A program made the translations under genes and the position numbers. Shown one piece after another: positions 19,272 to 43,968 of a DNA stretch of 64,000 nt. Source of the stretch: an uncultured bacterium (GTDB taxonomy: Bacteria > Bacillota_I > Bacilli_A > RF39 > UBA660). The stretch is from assembly GCA_946560065.1 (NCBI GenBank), contig CAMNUE010000001.1:62805-126804 (forward strand). Reading direction: 5' to 3'. Numbering within the stretch: position 1 is the stretch's first letter; every line of letters begins with the position of its first letter. The notes beneath the pieces were generated by a model, which saw only the letters and a list, made by a program, of their open reading frames with translations, did no database searches and was not told the origin of the DNA.

Positions 19272-19290
19272 TGAATGGAGGTAAATAGCA

Positions 19291-19605: not shown

Positions 19606-19608
19606 CCC

Positions 19609-21315: not shown

Positions 21316-21331
21316 AAACTGGAGGTAAGTA

Positions 21332-21903: not shown

Positions 21904-21917
21904 GGAGGTGAGTTATA

Positions 21918-26841: not shown

Positions 26842-26852
26842 GAGGTGATTTG

Positions 26853-28274: not shown

Positions 28275-28283
28275 GAGGTTGTT

Positions 28284-28700
28284 ATGAGCAAAGCAATACA
28301 GTTTAAGAATAAAAGTGGTGAGAAGATTTATCCATGCCCTTATTATCCAATTGGTAGTGTTTATATATCTGTAAATAGTATAAATCCAGGCACTATCTTT
28401 GGAGGTACATGGGAACAAATAAAAGATAGATTTTTGTTAGCTTGTGGCAATACATATTCAAATGGTAGCACAGGTGGCGAGTCTACTCACAAATTGACAG
28501 TTGATGAAATGCCATCGCATAACCATCAACAGAGAGTTCAAAATACAAGTGGCTATGGTGGTGCAGATGGACAAGAAGCAGGAACTGGATGGGGAGGGTC
28601 ATCGCATTATGCTAACTGGAATCAGAATACTGGTGGGAGTAAGGCTCATAATAATATGCCTCCGTACCTTGCAGTTTATGTTTGGAAGAGGGTGAGCTAA
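28284..28700 (+). CDS. Tail collar fibre-domain protein
   Basis: GGESTHKLTVDEMPSHNH ... AHNNMPPYLAVYVWKR, as in the phage tail collar domain. N-terminus MSKAIQFKN is shared with the next two genes. Confidence 0.7.
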   Translation: MSKAIQFKNKSGEKIYPCPYYPIGSVYISVNSINPGTIFGGTWEQIKDRFLLACGNTYSNGSTGGESTHKLTVDEMPSHNHQQRVQNTSGYGGADGQEAGTGWGGSSHYANWNQNTGGSKAHNNMPPYLAVYVWKRVS

Positions 28701-29230
28701 TGAGTAAAGCTATAAAATTTAAAAATAATACTTATTTAGATAGCAGTTCAGTAGTTCATAATAAAGTTGCATTGAATACGATATTAACTCCAAATTATAT
28801 GATAATTGGAAAAAGCGTAGAACCGTTAAGATGGGCGGATAAAGGGACATGGGCTACGATGGATTTTAAAACAAGACTTGATTCAAATGGAACTAAACTT
28901 ACTCATTCAGGAAATGCAATAAAAATAGGAACTGGAGTATCAAAAATAAGAGTTGTGGCACAAGTTTTATATGATGGTTCAAATGTAGATGCATCAAGTA
29001 ATTATATTTTTATGAGAATAAGTCAAAACAATGTTGGAAAAAGTAAAACCATAAATGGATTTCATAGATGGGGAACATTGCATACAGAAGCAATACTAAA
29101 AGTATCTTCTGGTGATTTAATTAAATGTGATGTTCTAAAAAGTATGAGTAATGAAATAGGTTTTTATGATTATACAGGAAACTTTGGTGCAGGTGTTGGA
29201 TGTTATTTAATGGTTGAAGTTATTGAATAG
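28700..29230 (+). CDS. Fibre/receptor-binding paralogue 1 (unknown fold)
   Basis: Start at ATG 28700, overlapping the previous stop codon. N-terminus MSKAIKFKNNTYLDSSSVVHNK is near-identical to the product of 29241. Confidence 0.5.
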   Translation: MSKAIKFKNNTYLDSSSVVHNKVALNTILTPNYMIIGKSVEPLRWADKGTWATMDFKTRLDSNGTKLTHSGNAIKIGTGVSKIRVVAQVLYDGSNVDASSNYIFMRISQNNVGKSKTINGFHRWGTLHTEAILKVSSGDLIKCDVLKSMSNEIGFYDYTGNFGAGVGCYLMVEVIE

Positions 29231-29240
29231 GAGGAAGTAA

Positions 29241-29621
29241 ATGAGTAAAGCGATAAAATTTAGAAATAATACTTATTTAGACAGTAGTTCAATTACACAT
29301 AATAAAACAACTTTAAAATCAATACTAGATACATATAATGGTCGTAAGTTTTTAGAATGGAAATCAACATCATCTAAAAATTTAAATGATGATGTGTATA
29401 TAACACCAGGGTTATTTACTATTGGTGGATCATATAGTAATTGTTATACTTCTGGAACAATCTATGGAGTGTTAATGGTACTAACCAACGATGGTGGTAA
29501 ATGGAGAAAAACAGATAGCAGTAGTTGGTTGTGGCAAATAATAATAACAACAGGTGGTAGTATTTGGATGAGAAGAGGAATAAATGGTTCAGTACCAGAA
29601 GGCTGGACACAATATCACTAG
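29241..29621 (+). CDS. Fibre/receptor-binding paralogue 2 (unknown fold)
   Basis: N-terminus MSKAIKFRNNTYLDSSSITHNK; the C-terminus is unrelated to paralogue 1. Confidence 0.5.
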   Translation: MSKAIKFRNNTYLDSSSITHNKTTLKSILDTYNGRKFLEWKSTSSKNLNDDVYITPGLFTIGGSYSNCYTSGTIYGVLMVLTNDGGKWRKTDSSSWLWQIIITTGGSIWMRRGINGSVPEGWTQYH

Positions 29622-29633
29622 GAGGAAATATAA

Positions 29634-30029
29634 ATGAAGTCAATTTTTAATTTTATAACAGGTACGGTACTAACAACAGTAGTGTACTTTTTAGGAGGTT
29701 TAGATGTGGCACTAAAGACATTATTAGTTTTCATATTACTCGATTATATTACAGGAGTATGTGAAGCAATAACGAATAAAAGACTAAATAGCATAATAGG
29801 TGCTAAAGGAATAATGAAAAAGATAGGTTACTTGATAATAGTTGCTCTGGCAGTTCAGTTAGATACTATAACTGGAGAAACCGGTGCAATTAGAACTCTT
29901 GTAATCTATTTTTTCGTAGCAAATGAAGGAATATCAATTCTAGAAAATTGGGGGGCTATGGGATTGCCACTACCTAAAAAAATAATTGAAACATTAGAAC
30001 AATTAAAAGATAAGAATGGAGGAGAATAA
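29634..30029 (+). CDS. Holin (phage holin family 4 / TcdE-like)
   Basis: 131 aa with three or four TM helices. LDYITGV motif. Lies directly upstream of the endolysin. Confidence 0.8.
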   Translation: MKSIFNFITGTVLTTVVYFLGGLDVALKTLLVFILLDYITGVCEAITNKRLNSIIGAKGIMKKIGYLIIVALAVQLDTITGETGAIRTLVIYFFVANEGISILENWGAMGLPLPKKIIETLEQLKDKNGGE

Positions 30030-30030
30030 C

Positions 30031-31005
30031 ATGGAAAGAAAAGGATTAGATATATCATCTTATCAAAAAGGAATCAATTTTGATGAAATAAAGTCAAAAG
30101 TTGATTTTTTAATTTTAAGAGCTGGATTCACTGGATGGGGTGGAGATGGTACTAATAAAAATAAGGATAGTTGCTTTGAAAATTTTTATAGCAAATCAAA
30201 AGCGAGAGGAATACCTGTAGGTGCATATTGGTATAGCTGTGCTAATACTTATGAAAAAGGTAAAGCAGAAGCGGAATACTTATATAATAATTGTTTAAAA
30301 GGAAAACAATTTGAATATCCAATTTATATGGATGTTGAAGAAGATAGACACCAACAAGTAGGAAAATCAAGAATGGCAGATGCAATAAAAGGTTTCTGTG
30401 AATATTTAGAAAATAAAGGATACTATGTAGGTATTTATGCTAATAGTAATTACTTTAATAATTTCATAGATACTGCAAAATTATCTATGTATGATAAATG
30501 GCTTGCAGTATGGACTAGCAATAAGCCTTCATTTAAATATGGTGATTATGGTTTGTGGCAAAATTCATCAAGTGGTTATATTTCTGGAATGAGAGTTGAT
30601 ACAGATTATGCATATAAAGATTATCCAACTATAATTAAAAAAGCTGGATTAAATGGTTATTCAAAAGGAATACCAGAAACTCCAAAAGTCGAGCCAACAA
30701 AAAAGAGCAATGATGAAATTGCCACAGAAGTCATTAATGGAAATTGGGGTAATGGTGCTGATAGAAAAAATGCACTTACTAATGCAGGTTATGATTATGC
30801 TGTAATTCAATCAATAGTAAATGCTAGATTAGGAGTTACACCAAAACCATCTGCAAAATATCACACAGTAGTAAAGGGTGATACTTTATGGGCTATTGCT
30901 AAAAAATATTATGGTGATGGAAACAAATATCCAGAGATAGCAAGAGCTAATAATATAGCAAATCCAAACATCATAAGCGTAGGTCAAAAATTATTAATAC
31001 CATAA
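30031..31005 (+). CDS. Endolysin: GH25 muramidase + CW_7-like repeat + LysM
   Basis: Start at ATG 30031 (GGAGGAG RBS). GLDISSYQ GH25 signature, GNWGNGADRKNALTNAGYDY (Cpl-7-like), and C-terminal LysM YHTVVKGDTLWAIAKKY..GQKLLIP. Confidence 0.9.
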   Translation: MERKGLDISSYQKGINFDEIKSKVDFLILRAGFTGWGGDGTNKNKDSCFENFYSKSKARGIPVGAYWYSCANTYEKGKAEAEYLYNNCLKGKQFEYPIYMDVEEDRHQQVGKSRMADAIKGFCEYLENKGYYVGIYANSNYFNNFIDTAKLSMYDKWLAVWTSNKPSFKYGDYGLWQNSSSGYISGMRVDTDYAYKDYPTIIKKAGLNGYSKGIPETPKVEPTKKSNDEIATEVINGNWGNGADRKNALTNAGYDYAVIQSIVNARLGVTPKPSAKYHTVVKGDTLWAIAKKYYGDGNKYPEIARANNIANPNIISVGQKLLIP

Positions 31006-31007
31006 CA

Positions 31008-31040
31008 AAAGGGCAGCTTATTCGCTGTCCTTATTTTTTT
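31008..31040. terminator. Terminator hairpin between convergent genes
   Basis: AAGGGCAGC-ttattc-GCTGTCCTT (one G-U pair) followed by a T run. The downstream arm overlaps the 3' end of the minus-strand gene. Confidence 0.55.
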
Positions 31041-31362
31041 TGCTCATTTTTTCAATGAACTCTCCATACTCGGTATAGTCTTCAAATAATTTTTTGTCTA
31101 ATTCTTCAATGTCTTTTTTTGTGTAGTGAACTTTGTTTTCCCAATCACGATGTAAAGATTTAAAAAGTTTAGGAGGTTCACTTTGTTCTAACTCTGCTAA
31201 AAAATTATGTCTTGATTTAATTTGTTCTTCTAATGCTTTGATGGAAATTTCGGTAAATTTATTATTTTGTATTTCCATTAAATCTAAAAGTTTTTTGTTT
31301 AAATCTTGTGATTCTTTTAGTGCTTCGATTAGCTCTTCTTTAGACAATTTTTCATAGTCCAT
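31018..31362 (-). CDS. Hypothetical coiled-coil protein (114 aa)
   Basis: Start moved to ATG 31362 (AAAGGAGTAA RBS). Sequence MDYEKLSKEELIEALKES... No recognisable domain. Confidence 0.5.
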   Translation of the reverse strand: MDYEKLSKEELIEALKESQDLNKKLLDLMEIQNNKFTEISIKALEEQIKSRHNFLAELEQSEPPKLFKSLHRDWENKVHYTKKDIEELDKKLFEDYTEYGEFIEKMSKKNKDSE

Positions 31363-31485
31363 ACAATTACTCCTTTCCTTTTTTGCTTGATTCATAAATA
31401 GTATACCATAAAAATGGAAATTCGGCACGAAAGGTCACTTATTTTTTGTAAAAAAAATGGAATAATATCTACTAGGGTGATTGAT

Positions 31486-31719
31486 ATGAAAGAATATAAT
31501 TTCAATAAAAACATCAAGTCAGTCATATGCCAAAATATTAAAAAGTATAGAAACGAAAAGAATGTAAGACTGATGGATTTAGCTGAAGCTGTGGATGTAA
31601 CTCCTGATCATTTGAAAAGGATTGAATCTGAAAATGACAGAAACAATATATCATTAACAACCCTATATAAGATATCCATAGTTTTAGATGTCAGTATTGA
31701 AAAATTTTTTGAAGAATAA
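31486..31719 (+). CDS. XRE-family helix-turn-helix protein (77 aa)
   Basis: Start at ATG 31486. IKKYRNEKNVRLMDLAEAVDVTPDHLKRIESE is an HTH_3 pattern. Confidence 0.7.
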   Translation: MKEYNFNKNIKSVICQNIKKYRNEKNVRLMDLAEAVDVTPDHLKRIESENDRNNISLTTLYKISIVLDVSIEKFFEE

Positions 31720-31749
31720 AGAGATATGAAAGCAAAATCATATCTCTTT
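31718..31749. terminator. Bidirectional terminator
   Basis: Perfect 12-bp stem AAAGAGATATGA / TCATATCTCTTT with an 8-nt loop, between convergent genes. Confidence 0.65.
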
Positions 31750-32019
31750 TAATTTTAATGGATTTTCTTCAACTATTTCTAATTTATACTTTTCTTTCAA
31801 TATTTGTTTTATATCAGTGATAACTTTATCAGTATTTTCAAAATAGATATTGAAAACATCTGCTGCCGAATTAAAATGCTGTTTCAATGATGACGTGCCA
31901 AGAACATCTAATGAATAACCTCTTGCCAGATAAAATGCAATATAAGGTGCAGCAACATTTTCTTCAATATAATGTTCACATTCACGCACAAATTTATCTT
32001 GATTTATTTCATCGTACAT
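31738..32019 (-). CDS. Hypothetical protein (93 aa)
   Basis: AGGAGG RBS on the minus strand (ctaggagg). Preceded by promoter-like element copy 4. No recognisable domain. Confidence 0.5.
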   Translation of the reverse strand: MYDEINQDKFVRECEHYIEENVAAPYIAFYLARGYSLDVLGTSSLKQHFNSAADVFNIYFENTDKVITDIKQILKEKYKLEIVEENPLKLKEI

Positions 32020-32040
32020 AAAATTAATCCTCCTAGCTTT

Positions 32041-32078
32041 TATATATCACTCTTTTTTTTTGTAAAAAGTCAAGTGAT
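32041..32078 (-). promoter_or_regulatory. Conserved promoter-like element, copy 4 (looser, minus strand)
   Basis: The reverse complement reads ACTTGAC-TTTTTACAAAAAAAAA-GAGTGATATATA. It shares ACTTGA and GAGTGATATATA with copies 1-3, but the spacer is 2 nt longer. Confidence 0.45.
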
Positions 32079-32156
32079 AATAAAAGCTATTTTTTTTTGT
32101 TTATAGGTTAAAAATCGCATACTAATTTTTGACTGTTATTTAGGAGGTAATAGTCA

Positions 32157-32585
32157 ATGGATGAAATACAAAGACAAAAAATTAGAAAGCTAAGAAGTCA
32201 AGGTTATGGATATTTAAGAATATCATCCTTGTTAGAGATTTCTCCTAATACAATAAGATCCTTTTGCAAAAAAGAAAATATAGCAGGATACATTAAAACT
32301 GGAGAGCAATTAAGGGGAAAAGATAACCTTCAAGTGTGCAAACAATGTGGAAAGAAGTTCTATCAAATAGCAGGAAGAAAAAATAAAACTTTTTGTTCAG
32401 ATAGTTGTTGTAAGGTTTATTGGACTCTTCATAAAGATAAGCAACGTAGGTTAGTTCCACAAAAGTATAACTGCATTATTTGTAATAAAGAATACTTTGA
32501 ATACCCATCAAGGAATAGAAAGTATTGTTCTAGGGAGTGCTATTACATTAGCAAACGTAAGGTGGTGGGATCAAATGAAACTTAA
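32157..32585 (+). CDS. HTH protein with two CxxC...FCSxxC (TRASH/FCS-like) zinc fingers; candidate recombination directionality or regulatory factor
   Basis: N-terminal HTH (GYGYLRISSLLEISPNTIRSF). Fingers CKQCGKKF...FCSDSCC and CIICNKEY...YCSRECY. Lies directly upstream of the recombinase genes. Confidence 0.55.
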   Translation: MDEIQRQKIRKLRSQGYGYLRISSLLEISPNTIRSFCKKENIAGYIKTGEQLRGKDNLQVCKQCGKKFYQIAGRKNKTFCSDSCCKVYWTLHKDKQRRLVPQKYNCIICNKEYFEYPSRNRKYCSRECYYISKRKVVGSNET

Positions 32586-32739
32586 AAATGAAATAACCTA
32601 TCAAATTACAATGAGTCATTTAAAAGATATGTTAGATAAAAAGATTATTTCAATTGAAGAATACAATCAAATGATGGCTGAATTTAAAGAGAAATATACG
32701 CCAAAAATAAGCAGTTTATTCTTTGAAATAGCCCAATAA
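32575..32739 (+). CDS. Small SHOCT-like protein (54 aa)
   Basis: Start at ATG 32575 (GGTGG RBS), 11-nt overlap with the upstream gene. LDKKIISIEEYNQMMAEFKEKY resembles SHOCT-type helices often found upstream of Firmicute serine recombinases. Confidence 0.45.
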   Translation: MKLKNEITYQITMSHLKDMLDKKIISIEEYNQMMAEFKEKYTPKISSLFFEIAQ

Positions 32740-32740
32740 G

Positions 32741-32776
32741 ACTTGATATATACATCATTTAGAGTGATATATAGTA
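32741..32776 (+). promoter_or_regulatory. Conserved promoter-like element, copy 3 (upstream of serine recombinase 1)
   Basis: ACTTGATATATACATCATTTAGAGTGATATATAGTA. TGATATATA occurs at 32744 and 32765, 21 bp apart. Confidence 0.55.
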
Positions 32777-32798
32777 ATGATAAAAATGGAGGTGTAAG

Positions 32799-34160
32799 AT
32801 GCGAAAAATAACAAAATTAGAAACAAAAAACATAGAGCTTCCTAAACTTAAAAGAGTAGCTGCTTATGCAAGAGTATCAGTTGAAAGAGGCAGAACACTA
32901 CATTCTTATTCTGCTCAAGTTAGTTACTACAATGAATTAATACAAAAAAATCCAGAGTGGGAATTTGCAGGAGTTTATTCTGATTTAGGTATAAGTGGTA
33001 CAGGAATTGAAAAACGTAATGACTTTAAAAGGTTATTACAAGATTGTGAGGAAGGCAAGATTGATATTATTCTTACAAAATCTATTTCAAGATTTGCTAG
33101 AAATACAGTTGACCTTTTAAATGTAGTAAGGCACTTAAAAGAATTAGGTATTGAAGTTAGATTTGAAAAAGAAGGCATCAGTTCCTTAACAGGGGATGGA
33201 GAACTTATGCTTTCAATACTAGCTTCATTTGCTCAAGAAGAGGTTATATCAACAAGTAACAATATTAAATGGGCTATAAAAAAGAAATTTGAAAGTGGGA
33301 AACCTCAATGCAGATATAAGATATATGGGTATCGTTGGGATAGTGATAATTTAGTAATAGAACCTGAAGAGGCAAAAATAGTAAAGCTCATATTTGAAAT
33401 GTATTTAAATAAAGTATCAGCAGAAAGAATGGAGATAGAACTTAAAAAGATGGGTGTGATTGCAACTAATGGAGGATATTTTAATATTGGAACTATTAGA
33501 GATATGCTATTAAATATAACTTATACTGGAAATTTATTATTACAAAAATCCTATACACCAAATCCCTTGGTAAGAAGAAAACAAAAAAATAATGGACAAC
33601 TTCCAAAATACTATGTCGAGAATAACCACGAAGCCATAATTCCTATGGAGATGTTTATGCAAGTTCAAGAAGAAAGGAAAAGAAGAAAGGCAGAAGGTCA
33701 AAGAGCTAATTTTGGTAAAAATATAACCTGCTTTTCTTGCAGAGTTAAGTGTCCGATATGTGGCAAAAACTATATGAGAAATTCAAGGTCTAGAAGGTCT
33801 AATGGCATAAAGGCTCATATATGGACTTGTGGCACTAGATTAACTGGTGGATCAAAAGCTTGTCCAGCAAAAACTATAAATGAAATCGCACTAAAAAGGG
33901 TATCTACTAAAGTTCTTGGATTAGATGAATTTGACTCAAATGCATTTGATGAACAAATAGAAAAAGTAATTGTAATTGGTGATGATGTTTTAGAATTTCA
34001 TTTTAATGATGGAAGGATAATAAGTGAAAAATGGGAATTTAATGGTAGGAAGGAATATTGGACAGAGGAAAGAAGAAAAGAGCGAGGAGAAAAGCTAAAA
34101 AAGATTTGGAGGGAAAAAAATGTCAAAAAAAGTAACGACAATACCAGCGTTATTAAATAA
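32799..34160 (+). CDS. Large serine recombinase 1
   Basis: Resolvase catalytic domain VAAYARVSVERG..SYSAQ, ILTKSISRFARNT, recombinase domain and a Cys-rich zinc ribbon (CFSCRVKCPICG). 453 aa. Confidence 0.9.
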   Translation: MRKITKLETKNIELPKLKRVAAYARVSVERGRTLHSYSAQVSYYNELIQKNPEWEFAGVYSDLGISGTGIEKRNDFKRLLQDCEEGKIDIILTKSISRFARNTVDLLNVVRHLKELGIEVRFEKEGISSLTGDGELMLSILASFAQEEVISTSNNIKWAIKKKFESGKPQCRYKIYGYRWDSDNLVIEPEEAKIVKLIFEMYLNKVSAERMEIELKKMGVIATNGGYFNIGTIRDMLLNITYTGNLLLQKSYTPNPLVRRKQKNNGQLPKYYVENNHEAIIPMEMFMQVQEERKRRKAEGQRANFGKNITCFSCRVKCPICGKNYMRNSRSRRSNGIKAHIWTCGTRLTGGSKACPAKTINEIALKRVSTKVLGLDEFDSNAFDEQIEKVIVIGDDVLEFHFNDGRIISEKWEFNGRKEYWTEERRKERGEKLKKIWREKNVKKSNDNTSVIK

Positions 34161-35697
34161 GCAATCTACAAATCAGGCTGGGGCAATAAAAAAGAGGAGA
34201 GTTGCTGCTTATGCCAGAGTTTCAACCGACCAAGAAGAACAATTAACAAGTTATGAGGCACAGGTTGATTATTATACAAATTATATTAAATCAAGAGATG
34301 ATTGGGAATTTGTCGACGTTTATACTGATGAAGGTATAAGTGGTACATCTACCAAGCATCGTGAAGGATTTAACAAAATGGTTAAATCTGCATTAGATGG
34401 TAACATCGATTTAATCATTACAAAGTCTGTTTCAAGGTTTGCTAGAAATACAGTAGATAGTTTAACAACTATAAGAAAACTAAAAGATATAGGATGTGAA
34501 TGCTATTTTGAAAAAGAAAACATCTGGACATTTGATGGTAAGGGTGAGTTGCTGCTTACAATAATGAGTTCATTAGCACAAGAGGAAAGTAGATCCATAT
34601 CAGAGAATGTTAAATGGGGACACAGAAAAAGATTTGCAGATGGTAAGGTATCAGTGCCATTTAATAATTTCCTAGGATATAAAAAAGGAGAAGATGGAAA
34701 TCTTGTTATTGATGAAGAACAAGCAATAATAGTAAAAAGAATATATCGTGAATTTTTATCAGGGTCATCATCTGTTGCTATTGCAAAGGGACTAACAAAT
34801 GATGGAATAGAGACTCCAGGACATAAACAAAAATGGTATGCTACAACTGTTAGGAGTATTCTTACCAACGAAAAATATAAAGGAGATGCCTTACTTCAAA
34901 AGCATTATACCGTTGATTTCTTAACTAAAAAGCAAAAAATAAATGAAGGAGAGGTACAACAATACTATGTTGAAAATAACCATCCTGCGATTATAGAACC
35001 AGATGTATTCGAGATGGTAAGATTAGAAATTGATAGACGATTAATGCTTAAGGGTAAGTATAGTGGAACTGATATTTTGACAGCGAAGATTAGATGTGGG
35101 GAATGTGGTGGTAGCTATGGAGCTAAAGTATGGCATTCAAATGATAAGTATAGAAGGGTAATGTATCAATGCAATAGTAAATACTCTGGAAAAGAGAAAT
35201 GTAAAACACCCGCAATAAGGTCTGAAGATATTGAAAGCAGATTTGTAAACGTAGTTAATATATTAATTGAAAGTAAAGATGAGATAATTTCAAATTTAGA
35301 AAAAGTACTTGATAAGATATGTAATAAAAAAGAACTATCAAAAGAAAAAGAAAAACTAGAGAATAGCCTAACAGAGCAAGTAGAAAAAATACAAGAACTT
35401 ATTGATATGAATTCAAGAGTAGCACAAAACCAAGAAAAATATAAAAAAGAATATGATGCCATGATAAAAACTTATGATGAAACAAAGTTTAAGTATGAAC
35501 AGTTAGAAATTGAATCATCACAACAAGCAGCAAAGCATCAGATGATAAAAGACTACATTAATACTTTAAAGAAACAAAATAAACCTTTGACAAAGTTTGA
35601 TGGATTAATGTGGGGGAGCTTACTAGAAAGTGCAACAATTAAAGATAAAGATACCATAGTATTTAAATTTAAAGATGGAACAGAAATAAATGGATAA
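34120..35697 (+). CDS. Large serine recombinase 2
   Basis: VAAYARVSTDQEEQLTSYEAQ, IITKSVSRFARNT, zinc ribbon CGECGG and a C-terminal coiled coil. 525 aa. Overlaps recombinase 1 by 41 nt. Confidence 0.9.
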   Translation: MSKKVTTIPALLNKQSTNQAGAIKKRRVAAYARVSTDQEEQLTSYEAQVDYYTNYIKSRDDWEFVDVYTDEGISGTSTKHREGFNKMVKSALDGNIDLIITKSVSRFARNTVDSLTTIRKLKDIGCECYFEKENIWTFDGKGELLLTIMSSLAQEESRSISENVKWGHRKRFADGKVSVPFNNFLGYKKGEDGNLVIDEEQAIIVKRIYREFLSGSSSVAIAKGLTNDGIETPGHKQKWYATTVRSILTNEKYKGDALLQKHYTVDFLTKKQKINEGEVQQYYVENNHPAIIEPDVFEMVRLEIDRRLMLKGKYSGTDILTAKIRCGECGGSYGAKVWHSNDKYRRVMYQCNSKYSGKEKCKTPAIRSEDIESRFVNVVNILIESKDEIISNLEKVLDKICNKKELSKEKEKLENSLTEQVEKIQELIDMNSRVAQNQEKYKKEYDAMIKTYDETKFKYEQLEIESSQQAAKHQMIKDYINTLKKQNKPLTKFDGLMWGSLLESATIKDKDTIVFKFKDGTEING

Positions 35698-35715
35698 AAA
35701 ATATAAAAAAATTTT

Positions 35716-35751
35716 GAGCAAATGTAAAAGTTTGCTTTTTTGTGTTATAAT
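35716..35751 (+). terminator. Terminator after recombinase 2, followed immediately by an extended -10 promoter
   Basis: AGCAAA-tgtaaaag-TTTGCT plus a T run, then TGtTATAAT at 35743-35751. Confidence 0.55.
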
Positions 35752-35790
35752 ATGGTTACAGATAAATAGTAATTTGTAGAGGAGATATTT

Positions 35791-36042
35791 ATGGAAGATA
35801 AACAAGTATTATTTAATAATATAGATAAAGTTCACACTACCGAAATGGGTATTGATAGAATTAAGAAAAATCTTAAATTAGATACTGATGATGTTGTTGA
35901 GTATTGTAAGAATAAAGTTTTAGATAAAAATTGTAACATCTATAAACAGGGTAAAAATTGGTATTGTGAAATTGATAATATAAAAATAACAATCAATTCA
36001 TATAGTTATACAATTATAACAGCACACAAATTAAAGAGGTAA
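35791..36042 (+). CDS. DUF3781 domain protein
   Basis: HTTEMGIDRIKKNL ... GKNWYCE...ITINSYSYTIITAHK matches the DUF3781 pattern. Confidence 0.7.
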   Translation: MEDKQVLFNNIDKVHTTEMGIDRIKKNLKLDTDDVVEYCKNKVLDKNCNIYKQGKNWYCEIDNIKITINSYSYTIITAHKLKR

Positions 36043-36047
36043 AATAG

Positions 36048-36512
36048 ATGGATTATCAAATAATAGAATTAGAAGAATTTAATGTAATAGGAATAAGGTA
36101 TGAATTATCAAAATCATTAAGTAATAATGTAAAATTAGCACAAAACCATTGGAAAATATTTAATAGTAAATTAAGAAATAATAAGTTATATTTAGGAAGT
36201 AATTGGTGTAAATATGCTTTTATTGAAAAAATAGAAAATAAGATATTTTATTATATATCTATTCCTAAAAAAGATTTTGTACCAAATGATTTTACAGAAA
36301 AGATAATTTTGAAAAGTAAATATTTAAGGGTAGAACATATTGGTAATATGAATAAACTAAAAGATACTATCAATTATGTTTATAAAGAAATAATACCTAA
36401 AAATAATATTTTAGTAGAAAATAGGCAATTTGTTTATTTTGAAAAATATGATTATAAATTTCATTGGAATAGAGAAGATTCTGTTATTGAGATCTATATT
36501 CCGATTAAATAA
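36048..36512 (+). CDS. GyrI-like small-molecule-binding domain protein
   Basis: 154 aa. Begins ..IIELEEFNVIGIRYE.. and ends ..IEIYIPIK, typical of AraC-effector/GyrI-like domains. Confidence 0.6.
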   Translation: MDYQIIELEEFNVIGIRYELSKSLSNNVKLAQNHWKIFNSKLRNNKLYLGSNWCKYAFIEKIENKIFYYISIPKKDFVPNDFTEKIILKSKYLRVEHIGNMNKLKDTINYVYKEIIPKNNILVENRQFVYFEKYDYKFHWNREDSVIEIYIPIK

Positions 36513-36542
36513 CAAATTACAATATGGAAGTGAGATGAGTTA

Positions 36543-37019
36543 ATGAATATTCACTTTGGATTTTCATATATAGGTTTAATATTTTTACTAATGTTGATGT
36601 TACCAAATATTATATGGAGTAAAAATAAGCCTAAAGGCTATGATAAATATGTAAAAAATGAAAATAAAGTATTACTACTATTGGAGTGGCTTGGAGAAAT
36701 GCTAGTAACCTGTCTGTCATTGATATTTAGTGATTTTAATATAAATAAAATATCAAACTGGTCTAGTATATTGTTAATTGCCTTTATTATAATGATTTTA
36801 TACGAAATATATTGGATAAGATATTTTAAAAGTAATAAAACAATGAAAGATATGTATAGTAGCTTGTTAGGAATACCAGTTGCAGGAGCTACTTTGCCAG
36901 TAGTTGCATTTCTGTTACTAGGTATATATGGTAGAAATATATTTCTTATTATATCAACAATAGTATTAGGAATAGGACATATAGGAATACACTTAAATCA
37001 TAAAAAAGAATTAGAATAA
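36543..37019 (+). CDS. Integral membrane protein (158 aa)
   Basis: Four or five predicted TM helices. No recognised family. Confidence 0.55.
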   Translation: MNIHFGFSYIGLIFLLMLMLPNIIWSKNKPKGYDKYVKNENKVLLLLEWLGEMLVTCLSLIFSDFNINKISNWSSILLIAFIIMILYEIYWIRYFKSNKTMKDMYSSLLGIPVAGATLPVVAFLLLGIYGRNIFLIISTIVLGIGHIGIHLNHKKELE

Positions 37020-37064
37020 GAAATTACAATTTTATAGTTATTGATTTATAGTAATTTACCGAAA

Positions 37065-37146
37065 AGATTGTCAGTAATGACAGTCTTTTTTGTACGACAA
37101 GCAGTTATACAAATAGATTAGTTCAGTGCAACTAATCTATTTTTTA
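37065..37146 (+). terminator. Two tandem rho-independent terminators
   Basis: First: AGATTGTCA-gtaa-TGACAGTCT plus T5 (37065-37091). Second: a perfect 10-bp stem ATAGATTAGT-tcagtgca-ACTAATCTAT plus T5 (37113-37146). Confidence 0.75.
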
Positions 37147-37191
37147 TAAGAATTATAAACGAATTAAATGCAATTATTTTTTTATTATTTA

Positions 37192-37241
37192 TTGACATTT
37201 AATTATAACTACTATATAATATAGTAGTATAGTTTGTAGTA
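37192..37241 (+). promoter_or_regulatory. Consensus sigma-A promoter with overlapping palindromic operator (probable PadR site)
   Basis: TTGACA (37192-37197), a 17-nt spacer, then TATAAT (37215-37220). A perfect inverted repeat ACTACTATAT-a-ATATAGTAGT (37208-37228) is centred on the -10. An extra GTAGTA lies at 37236-37241. Confidence 0.75.
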
Positions 37242-37260
37242 GAAAGAAGGGCTTAAATAT

Positions 37261-37611
37261 ATGAAAAATTATGACAACTATTTTCTTCCTGTAGATAATA
37301 TGGAAGAAGCAAAAAGATATTATGAGGAAATATTGGGGTTAAAAAAGAAATTTGATTTTTCTGATAAGGGAATGGTTGCTTATAATATTGGAAATGAAGA
37401 ACCTGCAATAATTTTAAAAGACAAAAATAAATTTGAGAATTTAAAGCCTACAATATGGTTTGAAGTAGAAGATGTTGCAATCTTCTATAAAGAAATGTTG
37501 AATAATGGTATAAAATTTTTGAGTGAGCCTTTTAAAATTGGAACTGGTAATGCAGTCGAGTTTGAAGATCCATTTGGAAATAGACTTGGCGTTACAGATT
37601 ATATTAAGTAA
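37261..37611 (+). CDS. VOC/glyoxalase-bleomycin resistance family protein
   Basis: 116 aa. Pattern ..A..YYEEILGLKKKFD... and C-terminal ..FEDPFGNRLGV.. is typical of glyoxalase-fold proteins. Confidence 0.7.
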   Translation: MKNYDNYFLPVDNMEEAKRYYEEILGLKKKFDFSDKGMVAYNIGNEEPAIILKDKNKFENLKPTIWFEVEDVAIFYKEMLNNGIKFLSEPFKIGTGNAVEFEDPFGNRLGVTDYIK

Positions 37612-37623
37612 GGAGTAGAGATT

Positions 37624-38151
37624 ATGTCAAATATAGATTTGGTATTATTAGGACTTATTAAACAAAAATCACAAAGTGCTTATGATATTAAAAAAAATAT
37701 AGAATATCGTAATATACCAAGATGGGTAAGAATTAGTGAACAGTCTATTTATAAGAAAGTATTACAATTAGAATCAAAAGAATATATTGTTAGCCATAAA
37801 GAGAAAGAGGGAAATATGCCAGATAAAGCAGTATATACTATTACTGACAAAGGTAATGATTATTTTAATAGACTTATGAATGATATTTCAAATTATGATG
37901 TTAGTCTATATTTGGATTTTAATATTATTATTACGAATTTAGATTTAGTAGATGATGAACAAAAAAAGATTCTTGTTTCTAATATAAAATCAAAGATATT
38001 AGAATTAAAAGAATTGCTAAATGAAAGACAATCTCATAGACAACATATTCCTAATGTTGGAAAACAAATGTTCAAACAACAATTAGCATTAGTAGAAACA
38101 TTAGAAAAGTGGATAATTGATTTTGAGAATAGTTTAAAAGGACAAAATTAG
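37624..38151 (+). CDS. PadR-family transcriptional regulator
   Basis: LVLLGLIKQKSQSAYDIKKNIE...SIYKKVLQLESKEYI...KAVYTITDKG winged-HTH pattern of PadR. Confidence 0.8.
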   Translation: MSNIDLVLLGLIKQKSQSAYDIKKNIEYRNIPRWVRISEQSIYKKVLQLESKEYIVSHKEKEGNMPDKAVYTITDKGNDYFNRLMNDISNYDVSLYLDFNIIITNLDLVDDEQKKILVSNIKSKILELKELLNERQSHRQHIPNVGKQMFKQQLALVETLEKWIIDFENSLKGQN

Positions 38152-38200
38152 CAAATATTGATTTTAAGTTAAAAGATAAATTTGTAGGGAGGGAAATTAC

Positions 38201-40123
38201 ATGAAAATAATCAACATTGGTATTCTTGCTCATGTAGATGCAGGAAAGACGACTTTAACGGAAAGTCTGCTTTATACAAGTGGAGCGATTTTAGAATTAG
38301 GCAGTGTAGATAAGGGAACAACAAGGACAGATACTATGTTTTTAGAACGTCAGCGTGGAATCACAATTCAGGCAGCAGTTACTTCTTTTAATTGGAATGA
38401 CTACAAAATCAATATTGTAGATACTCCTGGACATACAGATTTTATAACAGAAGTGTATCGTTCCTTATCTGTTCTTGATGGAGCTATTTTAGTAATTTCT
38501 GCTAAAGATGGTGTACAAGCACAAACAAGAATACTATTCCATGCACTTCAAAAAATGAATATACCAACAATTATTTTTATAAATAAAATAGATCAGTATG
38601 GAATTAACTTAAATAATATTTATCAAAATATCAAAGAAAAACTTTCAAATGATATTATTGTTATGCAAAATGTAACATTAACTCCAGAAATATCAATTAA
38701 AAATATCATTGATTTAGATGAATGGGATCCTGTAATTTCCAAAAATGATAAACTTTTAGAAAAATATATTGCAGGAGAAAAATTGACTATACAGGAATTA
38801 ACGTATGAAGAATATAGGTGTGTTAAAAAAGGTTCGTTGTTTCCTATATACCATGGAAGTGCTAAAAATAATATAGGAACTCAACAACTCATTGAAGCTA
38901 TTTCAAATCTTTTTTGTCCTGAAATGAATAAGAATTATTCAGAACTATGTGGAAGAGTTTTTAAAATTGAATATACAGACCATAAGCAAAGATTAGTTTA
39001 TTTGCGTCTTTACAGTGGAACATTACACTTACGAGATACAATTGTATTGTCAGAAAAAAAGAAAGTGAAACTTACAGAAATATATATTCCTTCAAATGGA
39101 GAAATGATACAGACAGAAATAGTTTGTTCTGGAGATATTTTTATAATACCTAACAATACATTAAGATTGAACGATATTATAGGAAATGAAAAGATTTTGC
39201 CATGCAATGTATGGAATGACAAGCCTGTACCAATGCTACGAACAAGAATTGAACCGATAAAAATAGAAGAGAGAGAAAAATTATTGGATGCTCTTACAGA
39301 AATTGCAGATACTGATCCTCTTTTACGTTATTATGTTGATACGATAACACATGAAATCATCATTTCTTTTTTAGGAACAGTGCAGTTAGAAGTTATCTGT
39401 TCTCTGTTGATTGAAAAATATCACATAAACATAAGAATCGAAGATCCAACCGTAATTTATTTGGAAAAGCCATTACAAAAGGCAGATTATACTATTCATA
39501 TTGAAGTACCACCAAATCCATTTTGGGCATCAATTGGATTATCAATAACTCCACTTCCAATTGGCAGTGGAATACAGTACGAAAGCAAAGTTTCACTCGG
39601 TTATTTAAATCAAAGTTTCCAAAATGCAGTAAGAGAAGGTATTAATTATGGACTGGAGCAAGGTTTGTATGGCTGGGAAGTAACAGATTGTAAAATATGT
39701 TTTGAATATGGTGTTTATTATAGCCCTGTTAGTACTCCCTCGGATTTTCGTTTTCTTGCCCCAATTGTACTTGAACAAACATTGAAAAAAGCGGGAACGC
39801 AATTATTAGAGCCATATCTTTCGTTTATACTTTTTACACCACAGGGATACCTTTCTCGTGCATATAATGATGCACAAAAACATTGTGCAATAATTGAAAC
39901 TAGTCAATCAAAAAATGATGAAATTATTTTTACAGGACATATTCCTGTACGTTGTATTAATGAATATCGTAATACTTTAACTCTATATACAAATGGGCAA
40001 GCAGTTTTTTTGACAGAATTAAAAGATTATCAAATTGCTACTTGTGAACCAGTTATTCAATCACGTAGACCAAATAATCGAATAGATAAAGTACGCCATA
40101 TGTTTAATAAAAAAGAAAATTAA
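38201..40123 (+). CDS. tet: Tetracycline resistance ribosomal protection protein (Tet(M)/Tet(O)-family; possibly the tet(44) class)
   Basis: 640 aa. [25 protein letters not shown].., DTPGH.DF, FINKID GTPase motifs. Colinear with Tet(M) through to ..RRPN.RIDKVR.MF. Class assignment needs a database comparison. Confidence 0.95.
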
Positions 40124-40162
40124 GTTACTATTCGCTAAATTACAATTTATAGAGTAGATGTA

Positions 40163-40190
40163 ATAAGAGCCGAAAGGCTCTTATTTTTAT
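40163..40190 (+). terminator. Rho-independent terminator after tet
   Basis: ATAAGAGCC-gaaa-GGCTCTTAT followed by TTTTT. Confidence 0.8.
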
Positions 40191-40194
40191 GCCT

Positions 40195-40257
40195 TTAAAT
40201 CCTATTCACTTACAAAACTTTTCTTATTATGTAAGTTAAATCCTGTTCACTTACAAA
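40195..40257 (+). repeat. 22-bp direct repeat pair at the element/comEC junction
   Basis: TTAAATCCTATTCACTTACAAA (40195-40216) and TTAAATCCTGTTCACTTACAAA (40236-40257), 21/22 identical. Between them, TTATGTAAGT is the inverted partner of ACTTACAAAA. Confidence 0.7.
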
Positions 40258-41032
40258 GGTTTGTTGTATTAAGAATGGTGTCGTGATAGATATTGGACAA
40301 GGAGACTCTATTTTGATTCATTCTCATAATAAAAATATTTTGATTGATACAGGAGGAGTTACAAATTATGGTTCTCAAAATACAGATGGAGAGATTTATC
40401 ACAATACAATAAGTCCTTGTTTTAAAAGTTTAGGAATTTCTAAATTAGACTATTTAATTCTCACTCATGGGGATAAAGACCATTTAGGAGAAGCCAACAC
40501 TATTATCGAAAACATTCCTGTAAACAAAATAATTATTAATAGTAACAAAATAAACTATTATGAGAAATCTCTAATCAAAGAAAATACAATTATTGGCAAA
40601 CAGAACTTATCTTTTAAAGTAAATGACTTGATTTTCACCCAGTTAAACGAAAACTTAGATGATGAAAACGATAGTAGTCAAATATATCTTTTGAACTACA
40701 ACAACCTAAAAATATTACTAACGGGAGATGCTTCTATAAAAAGTGAAGAAAAACTATTAGAAAATTATGAACTTGGTCATATTGATATTTTAAAAGTAGG
40801 GCATCATGGTTCAAAAACAAGTACAAGTGAAAAGCTACTAGAAACACTAAAACCCAAAGTAGCCTTAATTTCATCAGGTAGAGAAAATAAGTTTAATCAT
40901 CCCCATCAAGAAATAATAAAAAGACTAAAAAAATACAATCTAAAAATATATAATACTCAAGATAGCGGAACAGTTACAGTTGACCTAGATAGAAAGGTAA
41001 TATCTGAGACAAAAAATAGCCATAAAAAATAA
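40235..41032 (+). pseudogene. comEC: comEC 3' fragment (metallo-beta-lactamase domain only); 5' part displaced by the inserted element
   Basis: The sequence begins at the ComEC MBL signature ..VIDIGQGDSILI.., followed by THGDKDHLG and VGHHGSKTS. There is no convincing RBS. The frame is open only back to the TAA at 40232. The competence/TM domain (>400 aa in full-length ComEC) is absent. Confidence 0.6.
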
Positions 41033-41117: not shown

Positions 41118-42020
41118 ATGACAAAAATTACAGATATCTACAAAACTGATTTAACTGCCTTAACTCATTCTTATCAAGATGCTTGTGCCAACAAAGAATT
41201 TCACAAATTTGTTACCGGTTTAAATGTCAAAGATGACACATTAATGAAGTATACTTCAAGTTTAGAAGAAGCTTTTTCTGAACACAAGAATTGCCAAAAA
41301 TGCAAAGGCTTAACTGCTTGTAAAAATAAAGTTTCAGGTTACTGCTACACACCAGTACCAGCAGAAAATGTAATTACATTCTCTTATGATGCCTGTGGCT
41401 ACCTACAAGAAGAATTAGAAAGAAATGCCTACAAAGATAATTTGGACTTATTTGATATGCCGAAAGAAATTAAAAATGCCTCTTTTAAAGAGATTTATAA
41501 AGATGACAAAGCAAGAGTTCCAATTATCAAATATTTTAAAGAATTTATGGACAATTATCAAAATGAGAAGAAACCAAAAGGTATTTATCTTAATGGTTCT
41601 TTTGGTTCCGGAAAAACATACCTTATTGCTTCATTATTCAATGAAATGGCTAAGAAAGGCGAAAAAAGCATCTTAATTTATTACCCAGAATTTCTAAGAA
41701 GTTTAAAAGCTTCTTTTCAAACAAATTATACAGAACAATTTAATTATATAAAAAAAATCCCATTATTATTACTAGATGATATTGGCGCCGAAAATTGTAG
41801 TAACTGGTCAAGAGATGAAGTACTAGGACCAATACTTCAATATAGGATGGAAAATTGCCTACCAACTTTTTTTACCTCAAATTTAAATCTTGAAGAATTA
41901 GAAAAACATCTAGGAATAACCTCATCAGGAGTAGATAAAGTAAAGGCAAGACGGATAATTGAGAGAATCAAACAATTAACTATATACCAAGAATTAATAA
42001 GCAAAAACAGAAGGGATTGA
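41118..42020 (+). CDS. dnaI: Primosomal helicase loader DnaI
   Basis: N-terminal zinc motif CQKCKGLTAC and AAA+ motifs NGSFGSGKTYL (Walker A) and LLLDDIG (Walker B). Confidence 0.8.
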   Translation: MTKITDIYKTDLTALTHSYQDACANKEFHKFVTGLNVKDDTLMKYTSSLEEAFSEHKNCQKCKGLTACKNKVSGYCYTPVPAENVITFSYDACGYLQEELERNAYKDNLDLFDMPKEIKNASFKEIYKDDKARVPIIKYFKEFMDNYQNEKKPKGIYLNGSFGSGKTYLIASLFNEMAKKGEKSILIYYPEFLRSLKASFQTNYTEQFNYIKKIPLLLLDDIGAENCSNWSRDEVLGPILQYRMENCLPTFFTSNLNLEELEKHLGITSSGVDKVKARRIIERIKQLTIYQELISKNRRD

Positions 42021-42024
42021 TAAA

Positions 42025-43968
42025 ATGAAGAATATTGAAAAAGCTTTACAAAAATTCGCAGAAGGAAAAGGACCAAGAGTTGGATATAAAATTTTATGTG
42101 AGAACAAAAGTAAAACGTCCAACGAGCTTATCAATATTCTTGCTAAATTAGTAAGTGAAGATTTAGATAAATTTACAGGAGAAAACTCACTAGATAAAAG
42201 TATTGATTTACTAAAAAGCATGACTGTAATTATCGAAAACTGTGATGATATAAATAGAAAAATAGTCACAAGAAAACTTCATAAACTATATGAAAAAATA
42301 GAAAGAATTACAGAACAAAAGAAAAAGACTCTAGTAAACTTGGAAGAAGCTAGTATAGAGCTTGATACATTAAAACAAAATATCGAAAGTGTTCAAGACT
42401 CAATCCAAAACATGGAGCCAAAAAAATACGACTTTTTAAGATACTTAATAACAGGTACCCAAAATACAGATTATTTAGAATATTCATTTACCAGAATGCC
42501 AGAATTAGTAAATGCCAAAGATAAATATGGTGATCATATATTAGTGAAAGTAACTCAAAAGTATTTAGGATTTATCTTAGCTAATGATGAAAAACAAATC
42601 TTTCACTACAGTAATATTATTTCACTTATTCTTCGCCAAAATACTTTAGAACTTTCTCCAAAAGAGCAAAGGAAGATAACAGACGAAATCTACACTACCA
42701 TAGATAAACTAAGTGTTAGTAAAAAGATTGCTAAACAAAATAAAGATAAGATTAACTGGTTAAATAATCTAATAAAAACTATTAAAAATATGGATATTGA
42801 AGAAAAAGACATCGAAGAGATTGCAGCAAAATACAAAATACCTGTCAACTTTGATGAAATATTAAAAGAAACAGCAAAATTAACTAAAGTGCCGCAAATA
42901 GGAGAAGATAATAGATATTTTGTAGATGATTATGTTATAACTATCGATAAGAGAAAAGCAGATGAGATTGATGATGCTTTATCATGTAAAAAACTGCCTA
43001 ATGGAAATTATTTACTTGGAGTACATATAGCATCTGTATTAAGTTATTATCCATATGATTCTTTAATGATTGATACAGCTATATCTAGAACCCAGACAAT
43101 CTACTTACCTAGAATGTATTGCAACGAAGATAAAGAACAATGCAAAATTATTCCAATCTTTCCATTTGAATTTTCAACCAATAGAGCTTCATTATTACCA
43201 AACCAACCACGTTATACAAGAAGTTACTATTACGAAATTGATAATGAAGGAAATGTTGTAAATGAAAAATACATAAAATCAATCATCAAAAGTAATAAGA
43301 AAACAACTTATGAAGAAGTTAATAAAGTGCTTGAACATGGAACATCAGACACAGAATTTGAAGAAACTGTTTTGAATCTTCAGGCAGTAACAGAATTATT
43401 AGATAAAAAATATAAACCTTCCGAGTTTTATGAAAAAATAAAAGAAAGTAATGATGATTATTCTGACTTAAGAGTTAAAAGAGTAGGATCCGAAAAGATT
43501 GTTTATCAAGCAATGCTTTTAACGGGAAATAGAGTAGCCAATTACTTTGCCAATTCTAAAGAAGGTTATCCCTGCTTATATAGAGTTCATGAAACTAATG
43601 AAAATAACAATAAAAAATTAGAAGCTATGATTGAAAATCTAACAGTAACTTATGGTGGAGATCAATATCGTAAATTGTATCAACTATTAGAAGGAATATA
43701 TCCAAAAGGTTGGTATGGAATTGAAGGAAAACATAATGGCTTAGGTCTTGACCATTATTGTCATTGTACTTCAGCATTAAGAAGAGGACCAGACATTGTT
43801 GTAGAACATGCTCTTGAAGTTTGCTATGATAATACTCCAACTGATAAAGAAATAGCTAAGTTAGAAGCTGAAATCAAAAGAAGAGTAACTGAGATAAATT
43901 CAAAGTTAGATCCAATAGAATGGTTTGCCAAAGAATGTAAAAAATCCTATCAGAAAAAGCGAAAGTAA
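42025..43968 (+). CDS. Divergent RNB-domain (RNase II/R-like) protein with long N-terminal coiled coil
   Basis: ITIDKRKADEIDDALS, HIASVLSYY and HCTSALRRGPDIVVEHAL correspond to RNB motifs. No cold-shock or S1 domains are evident. Confidence 0.6.
   Translation: MKNIEKALQKFAEGKGPRVGYKILCENKSKTSNELINILAKLVSEDLDKFTGENSLDKSIDLLKSMTVIIENCDDINRKIVTRKLHKLYEKIERITEQKKKTLVNLEEASIELDTLKQNIESVQDSIQNMEPKKYDFLRYLITGTQNTDYLEYSFTRMPELVNAKDKYGDHILVKVTQKYLGFILANDEKQIFHYSNIISLILRQNTLELSPKEQRKITDEIYTTIDKLSVSKKIAKQNKDKINWLNNLIKTIKNMDIEEKDIEEIAAKYKIPVNFDEILKETAKLTKVPQIGEDNRYFVDDYVITIDKRKADEIDDALSCKKLPNGNYLLGVHIASVLSYYPYDSLMIDTAISRTQTIYLPRMYCNEDKEQCKIIPIFPFEFSTNRASLLPNQPRYTRSYYYEIDNEGNVVNEKYIKSIIKSNKKTTYEEVNKVLEHGTSDTEFEETVLNLQAVTELLDKKYKPSEFYEKIKESNDDYSDLRVKRVGSEKIVYQAMLLTGNRVANYFANSKEGYPCLYRVHETNENNNKKLEAMIENLTVTYGGDQYRKLYQLLEGIYPKGWYGIEGKHNGLGLDHYCHCTSALRRGPDIVVEHALEVCYDNTPTDKEIAKLEAEIKRRVTEINSKLDPIEWFAKECKKSYQKKRK

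Follow-up and report, generated by a model that had tools for sequence, protein, structure and literature searches.

A tetracycline-resistance-bearing prophage inside comEC of an uncultured gut Bacilli lineage, probably integrated by its own large serine recombinase(s)

The DNA analyzed here (the window) is a 64-kb stretch of assembly GCA_946560065.1 (contig CAMNUE010000001.1, positions 62,805-126,804) from an uncultured gut Bacilli lineage, in which the competence gene comEC is represented only by its 3′ part. The missing 5′ part of the gene (433 codons) was found 49.9 kb to the left of it, at the other end of a prophage. Very probably, this prophage is a temperate tailed phage of 49.9 kb which was integrated in comEC by its own large serine recombinase(s), with comEC being a recurrent site that is chosen by its sequence.

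An interrupted comEC gene with intact alleles in the same species

The open reading frame (ORF) at 40283-41032 (GTG start, 249 aa) is the C-terminal metallo-beta-lactamase (MBL) part of ComEC, as it matches Pfam Lactamase_B and covers positions 445-663 of the 663 positions of the NCBIfam profile TIGR00361 ComEC_Rec2. Its frame is shut upstream by a TAA at 40232-40234, the residues encoded upstream of 40283 (..KSCSLTKVCCIKNGV) are phage-derived and do not belong to ComEC, and no convincing ribosome-binding site was seen for this ORF by eye. The original prediction, made from the letters of the window, that only the MBL part is present and that its frame is closed by TAA at 40232 was confirmed by both profile collections and by reading the frame. 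The main features at this locus are:

1..40290, plus strand: right 40.3 kb of the 49,923-bp prophage, from the overlaps of contigs L103 and L081 with the head of the window
40291..41032, plus strand: comEC 3′ fragment (codons 437-682, MBL nuclease domain), matching empty-site genomes from 40284 and NCBIfam ComEC_Rec2
41118..43968, plus strand: dnaI and an RNB-domain exoribonuclease gene, downstream host genes in the same order as in empty-site genomes

The comEC 3′ fragment is separated by the insertion from its promoter and from the 5′ part of the gene. Among the genomes of the collection, the nearest relative on the species level is L001 (61% identity), in which comEA, a 678-aa comEC, dnaI and the RNB gene are ordered as in the window. 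A much closer match is the 682-aa protein P0182 from a metagenome-assembled genome labeled 'Bacilli bacterium', residues 434-682 of which are 99.2% identical to the window fragment. From window position 40284 onward, the four contigs encoding P0182 (L097-L100) match the window at 99.93-99.97% identity for 6.7 kb, and they contain an uninterrupted comEA-comEC-dnaI locus with an intact comEC of 682 aa. This near-identity together with the unbroken locus shows that the species also includes strains in which the site is empty and the gene is full-length. Close relatives lacking the element hence possess the complete gene and not a stand-alone MBL gene, which is the outcome that the original prediction depended on.

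The P0182 cluster also holds a protein of 460 aa (P0268) which consists of ComEC residues 1-433 and 27 foreign residues. In the contigs encoding this protein (L103-L107), comEA and comEC codons 1-433 are followed by the left end of the phage, with genes for a C5 methylase, a helix-turn-helix protein, a 919-aa helicase, a sigma-like protein, a DUF2800 protein and a single-stranded DNA (ssDNA)-binding protein. The last 443 nt of L103 (positions 20941-21383) are exactly window positions 1-443, and L081, another stretch of the same contig, is 100% identical to window positions 1-12764. As the tail of L103 is the head of the window, the prophage begins at L103 position 11304, ends at window position 40290 and is 49,923 bp long; its left 9.6 kb and the left attachment site attL (core at L103 11304-11307) lie outside the window. 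The suggested insertion of an element in comEC, as well as the suggested location of the 5′ fragment beyond the left end of the prophage, could thereby be verified: the right attachment site attR is in the window, attL is on L103 next to codons 1-433, and the empty-site alleles encode 682 aa. Independent copies of attR were found in four separate sequencing runs (L087-L090). This attL is present on 13-15 contigs and the intact 682-aa comEC alleles are present on about 37 contigs.

On the attL side (L103 11308-11425), the truncated comEC continues for 27 phage-derived codons, which are followed by a strong hairpin and a T run (ATAGCCTTTTCTAAAT..ATTTAGAGAAGGCTATTTTTTT). Owing to this read-through ahead of the hairpin, a channel-only ComEC of 460 aa could still be made. 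The left end of the phage (L081-L086, L103) is a second variable region, which across relatives contains a C5 methylase, D12/N4-N6 methylases or a complete type I restriction-modification system.

Attachment sites and crossover

At the right junction, the homology to empty-site comEC begins at 40284-40287. The four attachment sites that were compared are the following:

attB: ..TTATTTAAAAATGT TAGA TATTGGACAAGGAGAC..
attL: ..TTATTTAAAAATGT TAGA CCAAACTTGTCCGATT..
attR: ..AATGGTGTCGTGA TAGA TATTGGACAAGGAGAC..
attP (from the relative L102, recombinase 86% identical): ..AATGGTGTCGTGA TAGA CCAAACAACTCCAAAT..

Their features in the window are:

40287..40290, plus strand: crossover core TAGA, the only sequence common to attB, attL, attR and attP in the four-way comparison
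40259..40290, plus strand: P arm of attR (GTTTGTTGTATTAAGAATGGTGTCGTGATAGA), invariant in alignment A1 and joined to the P′ arm in L102

There is no target duplication at the junction beyond these 4 bp. As TAGA alone is common to the four sites, the junctions bear the signature of a serine recombinase, and not that of a tyrosine integrase or a transposase. It is likely that the dinucleotide at which strands are exchanged is GA (40289-40290), judging from the precedent of the streptococcal phage Phi1207.3 (PMC4260502) and from the symmetry of the arms. The argument from symmetry is weak: with the reconstructed attP centered on GA, the two arms agree symmetrically at 14 of 36 positions, among them TATGTT at positions 20-25 on either side.

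Joining the left part of attL to the right part of attR in silico yields a gene of 2049 nt (682 codons) without any internal stop, as had been anticipated for the two halves, and this restored comEC differs from the empty allele by 5 nt and 3 aa. The codons at the insertion site, ..KML-D/IGQGD.. (a slash marks the break here and below), encode the first metal-binding motif of the MBL nuclease domain of ComEC.

Two related high-GC viral contigs from IMG/VR (L176, L177) contain the exact 20-mer GGTGTCGTGATAGACCAAAC, which equals the core of the reconstructed attP, and show no other similarity. This match may be due to chance or may represent a distant attP.

Recombinases, cargo slot and tet module

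The original prediction proposed the involvement of a serine recombinase, and two genes for large serine recombinases are indeed present at 32799-35697, followed by a cargo region that reaches up to the end of the phage:

32799..34160, plus strand: large serine recombinase 1, 453 aa, catalytic AAYARVS (Pfam Resolvase, Recombinase and Zn_ribbon_recom)
34120..35697, plus strand: large serine recombinase 2, 525 aa, catalytic AAYARVS (Pfam Resolvase, Recombinase and Zn-ribbon)
35698..40136, plus strand: variable cargo slot, reaching from the recombinase genes to the phage end (relatives diverge, L102 is cargo-free), with the following six genes
35791-36042, plus strand: DUF3781 (Pfam/NCBIfam)
36048-36512, plus strand: Cass2/GyrI-like protein (Pfam/NCBIfam)
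36543-37019, plus strand: membrane protein
37261-37611, plus strand: glyoxalase-like protein (Pfam/NCBIfam)
37624-38151, plus strand: PadR (Pfam/NCBIfam)
38201-40123, plus strand: TetM/W/O/S-family ribosomal-protection protein, 640 aa (NCBIfam)

The two recombinase genes overlap by 41 nt, and recombinase 2 is 86% identical to the recombinase which adjoins attP in L102. An analogy to the Ccr recombinases of SCC elements was rejected, with a best score of 140 bits against a cut-off of 900 for NCBIfam CcrA/CcrB/CcrC.

The collinearity of relatives with the window ends at about 35790-35806, where their contigs stop or go on with other genes. In L102 the phage ends 318 nt after the recombinase gene and the cargo is absent. 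Because of this divergence and of the cargo-free end of L102, the region 35698-40136 is regarded as a cargo slot. The tet protein scored 1240 bits against the NCBIfam cut-off of 1100 for the TetM/W/O/S family and stayed under the Tet(M)-specific cut-off; on the nucleotide level, its gene is about 71% identical to plasmid-borne tet(M), tet(O), tet(S) and tet(O/32/O).

The tet module (about 37021/37139 to 40136) recurs at an identity of at least 98% in 17 of the 43 metagenome loci in which 1 kb or more is available ahead of the P arm. Some of these tet-module loci contain an ant(6) streptomycin adenylyltransferase or a methyltransferase cassette inserted before the last 154 nt of the phage, and several exhibit no recombinase gene within 5-8 kb upstream. 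The left edge of the module differs by locus (36508 to 37178). In L246 and L229, the module is located between a truncated hsdR and a truncated hsdM. By analogy, loci of this type would fit decayed prophages which kept the resistance end, as Tn1207.1 did relative to Phi1207.3. The recombination unit in the window is nevertheless the whole 50-kb phage.

Several short sequences within the slot were noted. Both the membrane-protein gene and tet are followed by a linker, AAATTACAATTT(T)ATAG (37021-37037 and 40137-40152), behind which lie a hairpin and a T run; in L252 and L243, this linker delimits the shared module on the left. Other module edges coincide with ATAGTAATTT, a further short repeat which occurs at about 35777 and 37048. 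Judged by these positions, the linker and the short repeat look like recombination points for the exchange of cassettes. Right after the recombinase 2 gene (35700-35800), a hairpin with a T run is followed by TGTGTTATAAT (extended -10-like) and then by a ribosome-binding site. This segment is kept in relatives up to the point of cargo divergence, and it probably drives the expression of the cargo in the lysogen.

The right end of the phage and its repeats

The cargo slot is followed by a conserved segment that ends with the crossover core:

40137..40290, plus strand: conserved phage right end, 154 nt, with linker AAATTACAATTTATAG, a hairpin and T run (40162-40188), two direct repeats and the P arm
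40195..40216, plus strand: direct repeat copy 1, kept in all relatives aligned
40236..40257, plus strand: direct repeat copy 2, matching copy 1 at 21 of 22 positions in the window and at 15-17 of 22 in relatives

This 154-nt end is 86-93% identical in six contigs (L087, L101, L102, L112, L137, L147), and its final 32 nt are those that are invariant in alignment A1. A scan of viral contigs with a 16-mer yielded mostly chance matches, six of 64 being real. The hairpin at 40162-40188 was recognized by eye; the combined scan for promoters and terminators did not report it and made no call at all in 40137-40290, its promoter counts equaling the shuffled expectation, and a search of the whole window against Rfam gave no match.

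In the original prediction, the junction was described as carrying a 22-bp direct repeat and a dyad. The repeat, TTAAATCCT(A/G)TTCACTTACAAA, does occur exactly twice in the window, 41 bp apart (40195-40216 and 40236-40257), and no match turned up in any of 100 shuffles. Also the dyad, ACTTACAAAA / TTATGTAAGT, is present, with 9 of 10 positions being complementary when read directly from the sequence. However, repeat and dyad lie inside the phage arm and off the TAGA core at 40287-40290, so that they do not form the junction. The dyad is not the recombination site and is not conserved, being degraded in relatives with the same phage end (TTATATAAGT, TTATATATGT, TTATATAGGA). The two repeat copies belong to the phage side, at distances of 33-54 and 74-95 bp to the crossover, and lie just outside the invariant part of the arm. 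Every relative contains two copies with the same 41-nt spacing, and, judged by the lower match in relatives, the near-perfect match between the two copies of the window is a local peculiarity. As no further copies beyond chance were found elsewhere in the phage, the repeat is not a dispersed operator. Its conservation suggests a function, for which a site for an accessory or directionality protein would be a guess.

Other targets of the phage arm and other elements in comEC

The exact 25-nt P arm (window 40266-40290) was found in 77 metagenome loci (L179-L255) with 57 distinct downstream 20-mers. The targets at these junctions include:

Motif I of ComEC (D[VI]GQGD): 8 distinct
Motif I of N6-DNA and other S-adenosylmethionine (SAM)-dependent methyltransferases (D-P-x-C-G-x-G): 25 distinct
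comEA: 2 distinct (L202, L234)
Receiver-like ORF: 8 loci

The methyltransferase targets begin at position 50 of the Pfam N6_Mtase profile, and the comEA targets show SLBB and HHH_3 domains. At all these junctions, the GTG ATA GA supplied by the phage is in frame with an Asp codon of the target. The downstream half-sites share the consensus T[CG]C[AT]G[CG]T[TC][GA]TGG, with G at +11 in 40 of 54 and at +12 in 46 of 54 cases, and this consensus resembles the P′ arm of the phage itself (CCAAACTTGTCC). Where recombinases are visible beside the P arm, they are 86-95% identical to those of the window (93-95% in two comEC cases, 86% in two methyltransferase cases). Judged by these half-sites, comEC looks like a recurrent, non-exclusive target, and the targeting looks sequence-driven.

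In L247, the target of the P arm is a tet gene. In L180, L188 and L215, two direct copies of the P arm lie 1.8 kb apart, each being followed by the same TGCAGCTTGTGGATCTG.., which could be a tandem or duplicated junction.

The phage in the window is not the only element that interrupts comEC in this group. In the same species, another prophage, which encodes a single serine recombinase of 472 aa, is inserted at comEC codon 152 (DPYLH/; P0269, P0270, L173; L173/L174). Moreover, comEC is interrupted at HGDKDH, the motif of the streptococcal comEC site, in the same species (P0001) and in a relative (P0007). A junction at GQGD/SIL was seen in the comEC of a 68%-identical relative.

Proposed explanation and its rivals

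In the proposed explanation, integration would be a conservative exchange between attP and attB at TAGA, carried out by the recombinase(s) from the two overlapping genes at the right end. The insertion splits the channel part of ComEC (433 codons and 27 phage-derived codons, then the hairpin) from the nuclease part (246 codons without promoter or ribosome-binding site). Due to this separation of channel and nuclease, the lysogen should be non-transformable. Excision, which was performed in silico only, would rebuild comEC exactly, since serine recombination neither adds nor removes bases. The region that separates the recombinase genes from the phage end would act as an expression slot for interchangeable cargo, which here is the PadR-tet ribosomal-protection module. 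The recombinase lineage would pick its landing site by sequence, namely a run of hydrophobic-Asp codons and then glycine codons, and comEC would not be a locus that co-evolved with the phage as a switch.

Some points weigh against this explanation. The attP used in the comparison comes from the relative L102 and not from this phage, the own attP of which was not found in the contigs of the JGI metagenomes. Which of the two recombinases acts is something that we infer, and no recombination directionality factor was identified in the phage; to our knowledge, such factors have no common sequence signature. Excision as well as the non-transformability of the lysogen are predictions made from sequence. 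In view of the recombinase identities at the comEC and methyltransferase junctions, sub-lineages of the recombinase may also be more site-specific than the pooled data imply.

The original prediction suggested active lysogeny. In such a case, the prophage would leave comEC without lysis when competence is induced, so that the gene is restored, and would reintegrate later on. Known switch elements of this kind are phi10403S in comK of Listeria as well as SPbeta in spsM and skin in sigK of Bacillus subtilis, the two Bacillus elements using serine recombinases according to the original prediction. The exact restoration of the ORF by in-silico excision, the scar-free and reversible nature of serine recombination and the occurrence of related phages in circular or attP form (L102) would be in line with such a switch, as are the precedents in sigK, spsM and comK, for the latter of which active lysogeny is documented (PMC7397523). 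However, the prophage is polymorphic and not fixed within its species, as reflected by the numbers of intact and attL contigs given above, and it contains complete lytic modules. A switch would be expected to be kept stably at its locus throughout the species, an expectation that is our own and no published definition. Unrelated elements interrupt comEC at other positions, and the same arm lands in many other genes. Together, the polymorphism, the lytic modules and the other insertions and targets fit better with a sequence- or parasite-driven targeting than with a co-evolved host switch, and active lysogeny is therefore considered improbable. In the literature searched, comEC is tied to active lysogeny in passing mentions only, and no report of a comEC prophage as a switch was found. 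A broader adaptive scenario, according to which the recombinase lineage evolved to land in DNA-entry genes (comEC, comEA, hsdM) via the DNA encoding hydrophobic-Asp, Gly-x-Gly motifs, with an adaptive and reversible knock-out against curing and possibly a competence switch in the case of comEC, is regarded as doubtful. If it were true, integration would be a fully reversible knock-out of transformation or restriction, which shields the phage from curing.

Another idea is that the junction belongs to a small unit of tet module and 154-nt end, either a remnant like Tn1207.1 or a cassette mobilized in trans, that came to lie beside the prophage by chance. The near-identical module in 17 of 43 loci, several of them with no recombinase gene nearby, and its placement between hsdR and hsdM remnants in L246 and L229 speak in favor of such a unit. 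Yet the cargo-free L102 exhibits the same end right after its recombinase gene, which assigns the 154-nt end to the phage; the partner junction that restores comEC is at the far left of the 50-kb phage and not beside the tet module; and the varying left edges of the module resemble end points of deletion or recombination rather than a defined attachment site. Hence, this possibility appears highly unlikely. Finally, comEC might be naturally split, with a stand-alone MBL gene, or the junction might be an assembly chimera. Most of the best database matches to the window fragment are in fact MBL-only proteins of about 245-250 aa, but both cases on long contigs that were inspected turned out to be artifacts (in L091, the contig begins inside comEC with the frame open to the contig edge; in L092, a scaffold gap lies at the break point), and a natural split deduced from these matches was rejected. 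A search with the N-terminal part of ComEC returned mostly full-length proteins of 656-696 aa, and among the 120 best ComEC relatives listed nearly all are of this length, the shorter ones inspected stopping at contig edges. Considering also the intact gene within the same species, the recurrence of the junctions in independent assemblies and the exact restoration in silico, the probability of a natural split or a chimera is negligible. Integration by the own recombinase(s) of the phage at a site chosen by sequence thus remains the preferred explanation.

Comparison with known elements

The elements named in the original prediction as precedents, those in comK, sigK and spsM, are not the nearest ones, as the streptococcal comEC prophages Phi1207.3 and Phi10394.4 are nearer (PMC4260502). 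In S. pyogenes, Phi1207.3 (formerly Tn1207.3) and Phi10394.4 integrate at a GA dinucleotide inside comEC, and cargo lies behind the pair of overlapping serine recombinase genes at their right end; Tn1207.1 is a defective, resistance-bearing 7-kb derivative in celB/comEC of S. pneumoniae (PMC4260502). Shared features are the integration of a phage of about 50 kb within the coding part of comEC, the overlapping recombinase genes with cargo behind them, resistance genes aboard and truncated resistance-bearing remnants, and a crossover at GA with no longer duplication is likely for the phage described here as well. The comparison was made with the published description (PMC4260502). Differences to Phi1207.3 are the host, an uncultured gut Bacilli, the position of the resistance genes, with tet at the right end instead of mef(A)/msr(D) at the left, and that no third recombinase was seen. 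Phim46.1 in rum was dropped as an analog of the motif-I insertions, since its core, according to the respective paper, has 18 bp and lies at the 3′ end of rum.

On the sequence level, the S. suis phages phi-SsuSH0918_comEC and phi-SsuHCJ31_comEC (MN270274, MN270268) possess an orthologous recombinase pair. Recombinase 2 of the window is 51% identical (aa) to their 'integrase', and recombinase 1 is 44% identical to the first recombinase of phi-SsuSH0918_comEC. The arrangement comEA, comEC′, phage, ′comEC and a core ending in GA are shared as well, and the P-arm motif TTGTATTAA has the same distance from GA in the phage of the window and in the S. suis comEC phage. The sites within comEC, however, differ. 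In S. suis, the junctions LTHT/EV.. and ..STN/TDADH give an attB in the HxHxDH motif (LTHT/DADH), which leaves a fragment of 193 aa, whereas the site in the window (MLD/IGQGD) is in the preceding motif, 61 codons upstream, and leaves 246 codons. The right end of the S. suis phages also lacks the two 22-bp repeats.

As for the elements in comK, spsM and sigK, a coding sequence is interrupted and precise excision (here in silico) rebuilds the gene. Unlike these, the prophage is accessory and not fixed, and its recombinase lineage has many other targets. Mobile elements are known to enter the competence genes comYC/comGC, comFA, comEC, comM and ssbB (Croucher 2016, PMC4774983; review PMC12378983), which is usually interpreted as self-protection of the element from its removal by transformation, termed 'chromosomal curing' (PMC4774983, PMC12378983). 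The situation described here is similar in that a mobile element disrupts a competence gene and in that several independent elements are found in one gene. While the reports on 'chromosomal curing' concern pathogens, mostly streptococci and Gram-negative bacteria, the present case concerns a gut lineage, and the arm is also found in comEA and in genes for restriction-modification methyltransferases.

Serine-recombinase prophages in comEC of streptococci were already known; new are the attachment site within comEC and the host lineage. Prophages of this type, which target comEC and carry resistance genes, are thereby extended from streptococci to an uncultured lineage of the human gut, and a second attachment site in comEC is defined to the base pair. 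The phage-borne tetracycline-resistance module is of relevance for its recurrence at an identity of at least 98% in many genomic contexts. Furthermore, the natural set of attB sites for one arm (comEC, comEA and motif I of methyltransferases) provides material on whether phages disable uptake or restriction by their integration site, and it bears on the site choice of large serine recombinases with multiple targets, a group that has drawn attention for genome engineering.

Phage backbone

The remaining genes of the prophage in the window form two main modules:

27..7289, plus strand: replication module with Enc34-type ssDNA-binding protein, family A DNA polymerase, D5_N primase and SNF2 helicase (Pfam)
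14423..31005, plus strand: packaging, head, tail and lysis genes with large terminase, portal, major head protein, tape measure, tail proteins, holin and endolysin (PHROGs)

Based on this gene content, the prophage appears to be lytically complete. A megablast search with window positions 30000-40300 against GenBank phages yielded no match. The backbone resembles those of the gut 'Ca. Heliusvirales' and of streptococcal Javan phages, with DNA polymerases being 65-73% identical. Between the two modules (8881-12301), a SAM synthetase-like protein is encoded beside a ParB-N6/N4 methylase and a C5 methylase, according to Pfam matches from the identical contig L081.

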